Origin: Dehalococcoidia bacterium
GTDB lineage: Bacteria > Chloroflexota > Dehalococcoidia > Plut-88900
Direction of reading: 5' to 3'
Assembly (NCBI GenBank): GCA_965249275.1
Contig: CBDFLQ010000007.1
Span: forward strand, 704,001-768,000
Length of the DNA stretch: 64,000 nucleotides
A program made the position numbers and the translations under genes. This document shows positions 20,040 to 48,790 of the stretch, one piece after another; position 1 is the stretch's first letter; every line of letters starts with the position of its first letter. Under the pieces are notes generated by a model, which ran no database searches, was not told the origin of the DNA, and saw only the letters and a program-made list of their open reading frames with translations.

Positions 20040-20380
20040 GGAAGCCTGTCCGCCTTAGGCGGATCATTCCGGCCGCCGAGAGCCGGTCGAAGATGCTGAA
20101 AGTGCGCCTTTGGCGTGCGCCGAGGCGTGAATCCATCCCCCGGCCGATGGCCCGCTCACCCTGAGCCTGCTGTAAGTCCGCTGAGGCGGATCGAAGGGTC
20201 GAGCGGGGGGCGGCCCCCGACTGCCAATCCGTCACCCCCGCCGTCATCCCAACCAAGCCCCCCTACCCTGTCATTCCGAGGCCCCGCGAGGAATCTGGGG
20301 GGCGGAGTCCTATCCCCTCTCCCTTTGACGGGAGAGGGCTAGAGCCTGCCCCGAGTCCCCCCGAGGGGGTGAGGGTGATC
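20040..20380. repeat. Cluster of several REP-like palindrome families
   Basis: ccgccttaggcgg; ccgctcaccctgag..gagcgg; gtcattccgag..gaatct (inverse at 47760-47800); ccctctccc..gggagaggg..gggtgaggg (inverse at ~48535). Confidence 0.75.
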
Positions 20381-20390
20381 CCCCCCAAAA

Positions 20391-20434
20391 GTGACACCAG
20401 CCCCTTGACCCGATATGAACATATGTACTATATT
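20391..20434 (+). promoter_or_regulatory. Sigma70-type promoter with LexA-like box (copy A)
   Basis: GTGACACCAGCCCC-TTGACC-N18-TATATT with GAACATATGTAC (20417-20428) in the spacer; homologous promoters at 32122-32164 and 48473-48516. Confidence 0.7.
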
Positions 20435-20439
20435 CTCCC

Positions 20440-21235
20440 CCAGGCCCCGACACCAAACATCGGGCCCAATCAGGAAAGGACCAAAGGAGTCCCATGAGTC
20501 GCACAAGCCTTCATAGGCCCCGTCGACACCGAGCGGTATGCCACCGCCCGGCCACCGGCACGCGCCTCCTCCCCAGCCCCTTCCCACCCACCATCCTTCA
20601 CATCAACACCCACTACAAGCGCTGCCCAAAGGCCCTACGCCTACGCCTTCGCAGCGATCAGTCACCGTCCCGCCCCCTGTATGGAAGGTCCCCGGACAAA
20701 TCACGGCACGCCCTTTCCAAGGACCACTGCCAAGTGCGCGCCCCACTCACCCGGCGCATCCGTTTCGCCTCCTCAGGCGACGCCCTGGAGCACGGCGTCA
20801 TGTCGCTCCCTCGGGCCATAGCGCCCCCTTGGGCCATAGCGCCCTCTTCGGACTCCCCCGGCGTAGACCTTGCCGGCCAGTCCGAACAGTCGGACAACCC
20901 CCGACTCAAAACAAACGCACCATTTAAGGATTCCACCGTCGTCACAACCGGAGAACACCCGACTACGAACGGCGGTCACGGGTCCCCGCTCCCATCCCAT
21001 AGGGTGGTCGAGCACTTCTGGTGGACGGGACTGCCCCACGCCGAGAATTTCTCGGGTCTCGTTCACATCCCCTCAGAAGTTAGGGGCTGTCGCAGAGCCG
21101 TCCCCGATGTGGAACATCCGCTGGAGCGGACGCCAAGCATCGGTACAGGCGTAGACGCCTTCTCGCGCAACCGTCCGGGACCTTCCATCACCCTCCCATC
21201 CCCCACCCACAACCCCACATATCCCTCACCGACCA
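20440..21235 (+). ncRNA. Candidate large structured ncRNA, copy A (divergent family member)
   Basis: Domain 20681-21188 closed by ATGGAAGGTCC(C)CGGAC / GTCCGGGACCTTCCAT; many internal hairpins; C/A-rich leader and tail as in copies B and C. Confidence 0.5.
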
Positions 21236-21248
21236 TTGGAGGCCGCCC

Positions 21249-21551
21249 ATGCCTAGAGGAGGCCGCCGGCCCGGCGCCGGCGCACCCAAAGGAAACTACA
21301 ACGCTTTCAAGCACGGCAAGAACTCCCGCCGCCTGCGGGAGCTCGCCGCCATCCTTGCCCTCGTACCCCGCACCCGCCGCCCTGCCCAGGGTGACCCCCA
21401 GAAAGCCCGGCTCGCTTCCGCCCTCGCACTCTCCTCCTTTATGGACCGCCTTTCCCTCCACTCTTTGCAACTCACCGACCCCGCCATGCAAAACCTCCAT
21501 CGTGCCGTCAAAGCCCTTCAACCTCCCAAACCTAAGCGCTCAAGGGAATAG
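21249..21551 (+). CDS. Small basic protein with GAPKGNxNAxKHG motif (phage terminase-small-subunit-like motif)
   Basis: GGAGG RBS before the ATG; MPRGGRRPGAGAPKGNYNAFKHG. Confidence 0.65.
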   Translation: MPRGGRRPGAGAPKGNYNAFKHGKNSRRLRELAAILALVPRTRRPAQGDPQKARLASALALSSFMDRLSLHSLQLTDPAMQNLHRAVKALQPPKPKRSRE

Positions 21552-21748
21552 CCCGCTCTTGGCACGGACTAAGCCAAAAACCCCTCGGAATTTAAGGGGA
21601 TTTTCCGAAAACAATCAGAATTTACGCCTGAGTGCGCACATCAATCAAAAACCCCCACCCACCGGCCCCCCTTGCCCCCTCATCCCCCCATCCCCGATAA
21701 TGACCCTCAAGCCGCCGCCTTAATGCATATCTTGGGAGGAGAGACGCT

Positions 21749-23338: not shown

Positions 23339-24939
<1,601 letters not shown>

Positions 24940-31394: not shown

Positions 31395-32115
31395 AGGATG
31401 TACTCGTTCGGTAGGTTAGCGACACACCGGCCTTTTCTTCAGTCCTCCAGAGGCGGATCCTCCAGAGGCGGATGTTCCATCTTCGATTGTGGGGTTTCGG
31501 TTTCCGTTCTGTCTGTTGGGTTTTGGGAAGGCGATGGAAGACGCTTGCTGGATTCGGCTCCCTATTTTTAGATAATGCGGGCTTGGAGGCGTCCCGGGAA
31601 CGTGGGGACGGGTCTCCGCCGCCGCCTAGACCTGGAAGTATGGTCGGACGTACGGGTCCGTCATCCGTCATAGGCTCCGATGCAGGGTTGGCTGCGCTGT
31701 CCGCCGCAGGCGGGTGCAGGAAGGGGAAAGTCCAGGGTCAGTTCCCCTCGCAGGAGTACGGGGTATCCAGTTCGCCGCCTGTAGCCCGGAGCCGGGAGAC
31801 GGCGGCAGCCCAGTTTATTTGGTAAGCGGACGGAGAGCCGAGCGGGCCTCGGCTACGGGCTGCCCCGTTCCGCTCCATGGGACGAGAGCTCCGAAAGGAG
31901 CCATAGGGACAATTACGGTCCAGGGCGTCTTCCATCGCCTGATGGTCAGGGAAGGGATAGCCGGGGCCCTGGGTAGAGGAGATGGCGGCGTTCGCTTGTG
32001 CCGTGGGGCGGCGTGTGGGCCGCCCTTTGGGATGGGCTTGGACGTTGAGTCCTCGGGGCCGGGTGGGCTTCCCTAGTTTTTGGTACCTCCTTAAGGTGGG
32101 TGTCGGGTCTAGACT
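31395..32115 (-). ncRNA. Candidate large structured ncRNA, copy B
   Basis: Closely homologous to 47800-48465 over ~530 nt; 16-bp perfect IR AGGCGATGGAAGACGC (31529-31544) / 31925-31940; no ORF conserved between the copies. Confidence 0.6.
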
Positions 32116-32121
32116 GGCCCC

Positions 32122-32164
32122 ATAATAGAACAAATGTCTTAAGCGGTCAAGGGGGTGATGTCAC
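32122..32164 (-). promoter_or_regulatory. Sigma70-type promoter with LexA-like box (copy B)
   Basis: Minus strand GTGACATCACCCCC-TTGACC-N17-TATTAT; box GAACAAATGTCT at 32128-32139. Confidence 0.65.
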
Positions 32165-32271
32165 CCTCTATGTGAACGGGATAAAAGCATGTACGGCCAT
32201 AACCTCGTGATATCATGTCCTAAGTTCCGCACTACATCGTTGCACTCAATTACAAATGGAGGTCTACGCGC

Positions 32272-47757: not shown

Positions 47758-47800
47758 GGGAGTCCCCGCCCCAGATTCCTCGCGGAGCCTCGGAATGACG
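47758..47800. repeat. REP-like palindrome (AGATTCCTCGCGG..CCTCGGAATGAC)
   Basis: Inverse of 20270-20310; related copy near 48598-48625. Confidence 0.75.
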
Positions 47801-48465
47801 AGGGAGCAGGCGGTGGTTATTCAGTTGGGATTCGAGGGTTTGGTTTCTTGGTTTTGGTTGGTGGGGTGGCGATGGAAGACGCTCGCTGGATTAGGCTCCC
47901 TATATTTAGATAATGCGGGCATGGAGGCGTCCCGGGAACGTGGGACGGGGCTCCGCCGCCGCCTAGACCTGGAAGTATGGTCGGACGTACGGGTCCGTCA
48001 TCCGTCATAGGCTCCAATGAGGGTTGGCTGCGCTGTCCGCCGTAGGCGGGTGCAGGAAGGGGAAAGTCCAGGGTCAGTTCCCCTCGCAGGAGTAGTGGAT
48101 ATCCGGTTCGCCGCCTGTATCCAGGAGCCCGGAGTGGCGGACAGTCCAGTTTTATTTGAGGAAGCGGACGGAGAGCCGAGCGGGCCTCGGCTACGGGCCG
48201 CCCCGTTCCGCTCCATGGGACGGGTTGCTCCGTGAGGAGACTTTTAAGTACGGTCCAGGGCGTCTTCCATCGCGGGGATCAGGGTAAGGGATAGCCGGGG
48301 CCCTTGGTAGAGGAGATGGCGGCGTTCGCTTGAGCCGCGGGACGGCTTGTGGGCCGCCCTTTGGGATGGGCTTAGACGTTGAGTCCTCCATTACGTGGGT
48401 CGGGGCTGGGTTTCCCCCCTGGGTTTTGTTACCTCCTTGGGTTTGGGGTGGGTGACGGATCAGTC
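47800..48465 (-). ncRNA. Candidate large structured ncRNA, copy C
   Basis: Homologous to copy B; 14-bp perfect IR GCGATGGAAGACGC (47869-47882) / 48260-48273. Confidence 0.6.
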
Positions 48466-48472
48466 GTGGGTG

Positions 48473-48516
48473 AATATAGTACATGTGTACTTATTGAGTC
48501 AAGGGGCTGGTGTCAC
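48473..48516 (-). promoter_or_regulatory. Sigma70-type promoter with LexA-like box (copy C)
   Basis: Minus strand GTGACACCAGCCCC-TTGACT-N18-TATATT; palindromic GTAC-N4-GTAC at 48479-48490. Confidence 0.7.
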
Positions 48517-48532
48517 TTTTTGCCAATAAGGA

Positions 48533-48790
48533 TCACCCTCACCCTAGCCCTCTCCCATCAAAGGGAGAGGGGACAGGACCGGTACAGACCCCGCACCGGA
48601 TTCCCCGCGGGACCTCGGGATGACAGGGGGGCTGCGGTGAAGGTGCAGGGTGAGCGCGATATATTGTCAGAACTGGGCCGCCCCCCGCTCGACCCTTCGA
48701 GGGCCTCCCGCCTGAGGCGGATCTTCGACAGGGTGAGCAGCCACTCTCAGGGATGGGTTCCCGTGTCGGGGCACGGGAATGATGGGGGAT
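48533..48790. repeat. Cluster of REP-like palindromes
   Basis: ccctcaccctagccctctccc..gggagaggg; gattccccgcgggacctcgggatgac; ccgctcgacccttcga..gggtgagc; ttcccgtgtcggggcacgggaatga. Confidence 0.75.

Follow-up and report, generated by a model that had tools for sequence, protein, structure and literature searches.

A short-form member of a genus-restricted family of probable non-autonomous mobile elements encoding structured RNA in sponge-associated Dehalococcoidia

In a 64,000-nucleotide stretch of a Dehalococcoidia bacterium genome (assembly GCA_965249275.1, contig CBDFLQ010000007.1, positions 704,001 to 768,000, referred to throughout as the window), the minus strand at positions 47817-48516 carries a unit, copy C, in which a perfect Shine-Dalgarno (SD) sequence is followed by no start codon. 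What such a locus encodes, and by what route it came to occupy its position, is the question considered here. A sequence-only reading had placed copy C with two others in the window, copies A and B, in a noncoding RNA (ncRNA) family; beyond these three copies, we find a family of about 50 copies per genome, with exchangeable core modules and the behaviour of a non-autonomous transposon. Copy C is probably a short-form member of this genus-restricted family, whose roughly 50 non-autonomous mobile elements would each encode a structured RNA. Each element would form a self-contained transcription unit, in which a strong sigma-70 promoter precedes a C-rich, non-coding structured RNA. The parts of copy C are as follows.

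47817-48516, minus strand: copy C, a short-form family member and compact unit whose RNA strand is the minus strand
48511..48516, minus strand: GTGACA box at about -45 from the inferred transcription start, the upstream limit of family homology
48473..48502, minus strand: sigma-70-type promoter, with -35 TTGACT at 48502-48497, an 18-nt spacer and -10 TATATT at 48478-48473
48431..48438, minus strand: SD-like AAGGAGGT, complementary to the 16S rRNA 3' end ...CACCUCCUUUCU
48309..48389, minus strand: conserved core of the 5' domain, in which GGAGGACUCAACG..AGCCCAUCCCAA and GCGGCUCAAGCGAACGCCGCCAUCUCCUC enclose a variable hairpin at 48360-48339
48253..48273, minus strand: 5' arm of the closing helix, GCGAUGGAAGACGCCCUGGAC, pairing with 47868-47890
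47891..48252, minus strand: exchangeable core of type 1, common to copy B, a multi-helix domain containing hairpins 48228-48239 and 48037-48049
47868..47890, minus strand: 3' arm of the closing helix, UCCAGCGAGCGUCUUCCAUCGCC, enclosing with the 5' arm a core of ~360 nt
47817..47867, minus strand: C/A-rich, G-poor tail of ~50 nt ending ...CCCAACUGAAUAA, the end of family homology

This layout of promoter, conserved 5' domain, long closing helix, exchangeable core and C/A-rich unpaired tail recurs in every copy, in elements of 0.65-0.9 kb with an RNA of ~600-650 nt whose strand composition is 38% C and 15% U. The copy C promoter matches the consensus at 10 of 12 positions, and a scan of its region returned two promoter-like sites where shuffles predict 0.2; both the -35 and the -10 box are kept across 52 aligned copies, and the GTGACA box in nearly all of them. 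The 5' domain holds unpaired blocks, GGACUCAACG, AGCCCAUCCCAA, CAAGC and CGCCAUCUCCUC, that are invariant or nearly so in 94 aligned copies from several species, together with a hairpin whose sequence differs between copies while its self-complementarity is kept (as judged by eye, the MAFFT alignment being poor there). The cores, of 355-540 nt, fall into 10 sequence types in this genome (13, 11, 10, 6, 4, 3, 2, 2, 1 and 1 copies), with type 1, that of copies B and C, accounting for 11. An CCAUCGCC-type 3' arm follows in 53/53 copies, 355-540 nt past the 5' arm. In core types 1, 2, 3, 7 and 9 the closing helix has the sequence GACGC/GCGUC, in types 0, 4, 5, 6 and 8 GGUCC/GGACC; core types within each of these groups share motifs, and would thus be deeply diverged versions of two architectures. 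The composition of the C/A-rich tail is likewise kept across copies, the tail of copy C is unpaired in the minimum-energy fold, and no terminator-like site or hairpin was found on the copy C minus strand in the scanned region.

This genome, of 2.9 Mb and 87% complete, contains 53 copies of the 5' module. From 94 copies a covariance model was built, which found 54 matches here and 23-69 in each of 9/9 genomes of the genus, with none in three genomes of other genera in the same family and order (0/3); BLAST likewise gave no match in 32 other genomes of the family and class (0/32). The RNA libraries that hold family sequence are labelled sponge metagenome, and the family is confined to one genus of sponge-associated Dehalococcoidia. 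At gathering score, Rfam 15 matched only 16S rRNA in the 64-kb window, and relaxed searches with copy C (E up to 10) and with 11 representatives of the other core types (E up to 1) returned matches at chance level only; Rfam covers no family that matches the copy C element, OLE, GOLLD, ROOL, HEARO, raiA and ribozymes among them. At the level of listings and abstracts, no published description of this RNA family was found. Matches of an 18-base motif outside Dehalococcoidia (four among the matches listed) were put down to chance, every other family motif being absent from them.

Evidence for movement comes first from the long form of the element, which extends over 739-902 bp from TGATCCCGTTCAC to CCGAACGAGTACA. 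Its ends, in copy B as well as in the others, are TG...CA imperfect inverted repeats, TGATCCCGTTCAC... and ...GAACGAGTACA, with no long open reading frame (ORF) or transposase between them. Exact 5-bp direct repeats flank 10/14 long-form copies; under a stricter definition of the ends the count is 9/13, and two more agree at 4 of 5 positions. The long form in the window is

31399..32184, minus strand: copy B, long form with the same core type as copy C, 786 bp from TTATCCCGTTCAC to CGAACGAGTACA, flanked by TGCTT/TCCTT (4/5 identical)

and over ~660 nt it is 85% identical to copy C (BLAST; copy B at 31516-32164).

Occupancy also differs between genomes. At the copy C locus one relative carries the same element, another the same 5' and 3' modules with a different core, and two are empty, their flanks lying 30 and 142 bp apart. 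Conversely, loci L054 and L120 are filled in relatives and empty in this genome, the flanks being 95-97% identical, and the empty site of locus L042 holds a single TTTCG. Mapping onto this genome the flanks of 75 retained other-species elements with a recognisable 3' arm revealed many shared sites and several that are empty here, including one with flanks 95-97% identical. Target-site duplication and presence/absence polymorphism, two marks of a MITE (miniature inverted-repeat transposable element) or other non-autonomous DDE transposon, were both found. The mobility of copy C itself would follow from its family membership and from the empty sites in two relatives, and a DDE-type transposase supplied in trans would move the elements.

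These same observations bear on an explanation in which the elements are simply a cellular family of ncRNA genes, multiplied by duplication and recombination and kept for a host function (e.g., as a protein- or ribosome-binding scaffold), the inverted-repeat form being a secondary capture. Sequence and structure are indeed conserved well beyond the needs of transposition, many loci are common to several species, cores have been swapped at a syntenic locus, and ~38/53 copies have no inverted-repeat ends. Exact 5-bp duplications, clean empty sites in comparisons of genomes whose flanks are 95-97% identical, and the fixed spacing to -35 hexamers described below nevertheless make this explanation unlikely, as does a distribution of 23-69 copies per genome with none in three sister genera. 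A CsrB/RsmZ-type sponge was rejected, since its partner CsrA was not found in the genome and GGA is only mildly enriched, at 15.3 per element against 11.5 in shuffles.

The insertion target shows a fixed pattern. A TTG begins at an offset of exactly 6 nt from the right end in 14/23 sites here and in 13/20 in other genomes, other offsets scoring 0-1, and a TANNNT box lies 16-18 nt from this TTG at 11/23 sites here and 12/20 elsewhere, compared with ~0.08 and 0.00 at control offsets. Copy B is an example, with a host promoter 5 bp past its right end composed of TTGACA (31393-31388), 18 nt, and TATAAT (31369-31364). Because empty sites already carry TTGA..., the promoter beside the element belongs to the host, and host promoters are found intact there. 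The downstream gene is co-oriented in 35/52 cases and the upstream gene divergent in 35/52, a co-orientation bias that fits fixed, one-orientation insertion before a host promoter. At the level of listings, no description of a -35-directed insertion rule was found in the literature, which is not proof of its absence. Nor did a scan of 52 neighbours for a common function of the downstream genes reveal a theme.

A cis-acting leader or mobile promoter cassette, driving or modulating the downstream host gene, would make direct use of this arrangement: the two orientation biases, the placement of long forms 5 bp before host -35 hexamers and in the same orientation, and the missing intrinsic terminator would all be expected of it. 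It is very unlikely as an account of copy C, which converges on the 3' end of a major facilitator superfamily (MFS) gene and so has no gene to drive, or of the family, in which co-orientation with the downstream gene is missing at 17/52 copies, host promoters remain intact and the downstream genes share no function. In the mobile-element reading, transcription would probably end by the action of Rho in the C-rich tail, a putative Rho loading site, thereby shielding the host promoter.

The predicted structure of the RNA goes beyond chance. The copy C RNA folds at -231.9 kcal/mol, compared with -211.1±7.3 for shuffles (z -2.84; 0/20 shuffles as good). For type-1 cores an alignment of 28 sequences was used (B, C, 22 close copies and four divergent ones from three other species), and its RNAalifold consensus contains 125 pairs in 20 helices; 95.3% of the cells are paired, against 35-44% with the partners slid. 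Double-sided, compensatory changes were found at 16 pairs, compared with 3.0±1.4 in shuffles (0/500 reach this number) and 4-8 in the slid controls, a covariation that is solid but not overwhelming, since the sequences tested are also those that gave the structure, and the signal comes in large part from a few divergent rows. Applied to the MAFFT alignment of the 5' domain, RNAalifold returned only invariant pairs and no compensatory change, the variable hairpin being misaligned there.

The two hairpins pointed out in the sequence-only reading as surviving substitution do so: the first is ctccGTGAggag in copy C (plus strand 48228-48239) and ctccGAAAggag in copy B, the second ccgccGTAggcgg in copy C (48037-48049) and ccgccGCAggcgg in copy B. 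Its broader proposal, that selection acts on RNA structure, is supported by the compensatory changes, by a closing helix that covaries between subfamilies, and by an absent coding signal. RNA structure in this family is under selection. That the elements are selfish repeat DNA, with hairpins incidental to a GC-rich sequence and an RNA, if made, without function, is highly improbable for the same reasons: compensatory changes exceed both controls, the closing helix has been rebuilt with different sequence between subfamilies, and promoter, SD and unpaired motifs remain unchanged between species with a flank identity of only 70-80%. What speaks for it is a genome full of other short repeats and active insertion sequences (ISs), and a within-type identity between copies of 91-93%, which implies that conservation is partly recent common descent.

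No protein-coding character was found in the subfamily of copies B and C, be it a start after the SD, an open frame, a third-position bias or indels in threes. The three frames of copy C hold 3, 3 and 8 stops, and type-1 cores are stopped in all frames. Substitutions by codon phase number 42/49/33 in type 0, 26/20/32 in type 1 (p 0.25) and 35/36/32 in type 2, and indels within these three types are mostly of 1-2 nt. Long open frames in type 0 and type 5 cores were considered as coding candidates and dismissed, as the frames shift, two are often open, and codon periodicity is absent.

The SD-like motif (searched as AAGGAGG or AAAGGAG) is present in 53/53 copies, none of which has ATG, GTG or TTG in the next 40 nt (0/53), and in 76 copies belonging to other species it hardly varies. 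As had been described for copies B and C, both leaders carry the perfect motif on the minus strand, AAGGAGGT-AACAAAA in C and AAGGAGGT-ACCAAAA in B, and neither is followed by a start codon; the 16S 3' end to which it is complementary, CACCUCCUUUCU, is present within the same window as copy C. The SD in this subfamily cannot, judging from these sequences, start translation. SD-like sequences without a start codon near the 5' end of an mRNA are known as STAB-SD elements, as in Bacillus cryIIIA, and AAGGAGG would most likely either act in this style, with a bound 30S subunit or ribosome shielding the 5' end from RNase J, or pair with an invariant CUCCU and close the 5' domain. RNAalifold pairs AGGAG with CUCCU at 48313-48309, ~120 nt downstream. 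RNase J is encoded in this genome, and all closed genomes of the genus (5/5) have Rho; stabilisation of the RNA by a ribosome bound at its 5' end, and termination by Rho in the C-rich tail, are accordingly plausible inferences and not results.

The remaining question about the SD is whether it once served an ORF, and here the third copy in the window is relevant.

20367..21245, plus strand: copy A, of a divergent subfamily, with an ORF at 20494-21723 and AAAGGAG-N4-ATG

Its SD and start codon, noted beforehand, are present as AAAGGAG-TCCC-ATG. Copy A has the promoter module and a AUGGAAGGUCC...GGACCUUCCAU closing helix in common with the C-type family, and A-type copies also share core segments with it, whereas the 5' domain is a different sequence. 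There are 10 A-type copies in this genome, with ATG in the start column in 10/10, and the frame from this ATG (AGGAG-N4-5-ATG) is stop-free for at least 246-264 codons in 9/9 locatable copies, compared with 1-7 stops in the other two frames. Substitutions are nonetheless spread as 165/162/151 over the codon phases, the ratio of nonsynonymous to synonymous changes (pN/pS) is 0.77 against 0.10 in a transposase control, the ORFs overrun the element into unrelated flanks to give lengths of 262-409 aa and arbitrary C-termini, and Pfam gave no match to the A-type ORF. The A-type frame is thus kept open regardless of the amino acids encoded, and ribosome loading may be a theme common to both subfamilies.

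Copy C could on this basis be a decayed, formerly translated SD-ATG-ORF unit like copy A, its start codon lost and its SD a relic. The suggestion of a lost leader ORF, already made from the sequence, gains from the SD-ATG and stop-free frame of the A type (9/9), from 446 database ORFs (224-716 aa) that match the A-type ORF, and from the promoter module, closing helix and core segments that the A type shares; it survives as a live minority reading only, and a distinctly unlikely one. An SD found in 53/53 copies and nearly invariant in 76 more from other species is unlike a relic, the 5' domains of the two subfamilies differ in sequence, and even the A type has flat codon phases, an unconstrained pN/pS, ORFs that run into the flanks and no Pfam match.

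Several observations accompany copy A. Besides window 20494-21723 (plus strand), the A-type frame occurs at nine other loci (L206-L214). Directly downstream of copy A, a basic 100-aa ORF with GGAGG-N7-ATG (window 21249-21551, plus strand; no Pfam match) lies in a frame other than the run-on frame of copy A and overlaps it. Window positions 23339-24936 (plus strand) hold a complete gene for 16S rRNA, and with no 23S or 5S match in the 64 kb the rRNA genes look unlinked.

Transcription is indicated by RNA-library contigs from four runs of four studies, which cover 47873-48388 with few differences and leave the adjacent MFS gene uncovered. Gaps in these contigs, and their break at 48388, coincide with branch points of the repeat family and are uninformative on the ends of the RNA.

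As for a source of transposase, the genome holds a 1,056-bp IS481-like IS encoding a 320-aa rve transposase, in 12 intact copies 90-100% identical (e.g., G000 C7:510013-511067). It has TGTA... tips, its insertion site is the ATTCC within the repeat GTCATTCCGAGGCTCCGCGAGGAATC, where it leaves a 5-bp duplication, and its transposase scores 189.7 bits, below the NCBIfam IS481 cut-off of 224. It is a candidate at best for mobilising the elements. A second IS of ~1.35 kb (8 copies, 99.3-100% identical; e.g., G000 C7:459478-460828) was at first sight tied to the elements and was rejected, its actual target being the REP1 repeat: it inserts inside CCCTCTCCC..GGGAGAGGGCTAGGGTGAGGGTGA (window ~48531-48575), and hence often lies just upstream of the RNA elements. 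Ideas involving a retroelement, omega RNA, bridge RNA or RAYT were also set aside, since reverse transcriptase, TnpB, IS110 and Y1 transposase were not found in the genome; PF07282, PF01548, PF01797 and PF00078 gave no matches in this 87% complete assembly. The two IS targets flank copy C on either side.

47774..47799, minus strand: REP2 flanking short repeat, GUCAUUCCGAGGCUCCGCGAGGAAUC, outside the element and in the place of the long-form right inverted repeat; insertion target of the IS481-like IS
48531..48575, minus strand: REP1 flanking short repeat, a CCCUCUCCC..GGGAGAGGG hairpin plus GGGUGAGGGUGAUCC, directly upstream of copy C and outside the element proper; target of the second IS

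Within the window the target repeat of the IS481-like IS is seen both at 47774-47799 and at about 48595-48625.

A number of findings weigh against the mobile-element reading or its parts. Copy C has neither inverted-repeat ends nor a recognisable duplication, being flanked instead by these other short repeats, and it shares the lack of inverted-repeat ends with most of the family (~38/53 copies). The search of this genome yielded no autonomous element sharing those ends; the site at which the IS481-like transposase acts is another one (ATTCC in REP2), and at E<=1e-30 this transposase was not found in 4/9 element-bearing genomes and is broken by two stops in a fifth. Co-orientation holds for the downstream gene in only 35/52 cases, and these genes are functionally unrelated, comprising diverse housekeeping enzymes. 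As to the RNA and its fate, contigs of a multi-copy family show neither strand, ends nor level, and their depth ratios fit copy number; Rho was not found in this genome (87% complete). The proposed pairing of the SD offers no covariation to test, because neither AGGAG nor CUCCU varies, and the single-sequence fold of copy C pairs the SD motif differently from RNAalifold. Finally, the A subfamily looks translated, so that a translated ancestry or function may yet apply.

Some further observations concern the make-up of the elements. The 5' unit (GGACUCAACG ... CAUCUCCUC) is tandemly duplicated, 87-135 nt apart, in several copies of one other species (L035, L063, L096, L111, L119), suggesting a self-contained structural module. 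A mini-hairpin of ~22 nt (GGAACAUCCGCCUCUGGAGGA and variants; L075, L078, G000 C7:805xxx and the 3' extensions of many copies) occurs once or twice in long-form 3' parts, and single copies have it inserted within the 5' domain, at two distinct points. Ahead of its own -35, every element has a sequence (GTGACACGAACCCC-TTGAC) that looks like an abbreviated long-form right end followed by the target (GTGTCAC..CGAAC..-N5-TTGAC), a hint that the element promoter may derive from an old insertion junction. Contig C4:5810-7500 repeats the element and both flanks (including the Lgt gene) of C7:584500-586300, and is probably an assembly duplicate or strain variant.

A more ambitious proposal combines these threads. 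The elements might be a new kind of mobile element with an RNA cargo, inserting 5 bp before -35 hexamers by way of promoter-bound RNA polymerase or sigma; copies of the C/B type would engage ribosomes without being translated, those of the A type would be translated without constraint, and ribosome loading itself would be selected (e.g., for control of Rho or of read-through). We offer it tentatively, as a possibility with the odds against it. If the mobile-element reading is true, a large and well-structured RNA class present in no database is abundant in uncultured sponge symbionts, at ~1% of the genome, and its natural core-swap variants ease dissection of the RNA domains. The fixed 5-bp, one-orientation -35 rule would then be an unusually precise case of promoter-directed insertion for a bacterial transposon, relevant to promoter rewiring by mobile DNA and to the way in which such DNA locates safe sites, and the orphan SD beside the SD-ATG and stop-free but unconstrained frame of the A type would offer a natural experiment for studying whether bound ribosomes serve in RNA protection or anti-termination.

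Known systems resemble the family in part. With IS481-family ISs it shares a 5-bp duplication and TG(T)A...(T)ACA tips, in which, by eye, 9-10/13 of the initial positions agree with the element right end; the IS differs in encoding an rve transposase and in entering the ATTCC of a REP-like repeat rather than sites beside promoters. As in STAB-SD, a perfect SD stands ~30 nt from the inferred 5' end with no start codon in a host with RNase J, although the motif of the element may instead pair with the invariant CUCCU. The ornate ncRNAs (OLE, GOLLD, ROOL, raiA, HEARO) are likewise ~600 nt long with many helices and conserved unpaired blocks, but they are single- or low-copy or tied to a nuclease, whereas the present family has 23-69 copies with their own promoters, swappable cores and transposon ends. 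IS110 with its bridge/seek RNA and IS200/IS605 with omega RNA also combine a structured ncRNA in a mobile element with orientation-specific, site-selective insertion; unlike these guide-RNA transposons, the present elements make 5-bp duplications and target a degenerate promoter motif, not a specific sequence. Neisseria Correia elements are promoter-carrying, transcribed bacterial MITEs, and are alike in being non-autonomous, multi-copy and intergenic, with inverted-repeat ends, a short target duplication, a promoter and a transcribed RNA structure. In contrast to them, most copies here have no such ends, and the present elements are five to eight times longer, carry a multi-domain RNA of ~600 nt whose cores are exchangeable and whose long-range helix covaries, and insert in one orientation at a fixed distance from the -35 hexamer.

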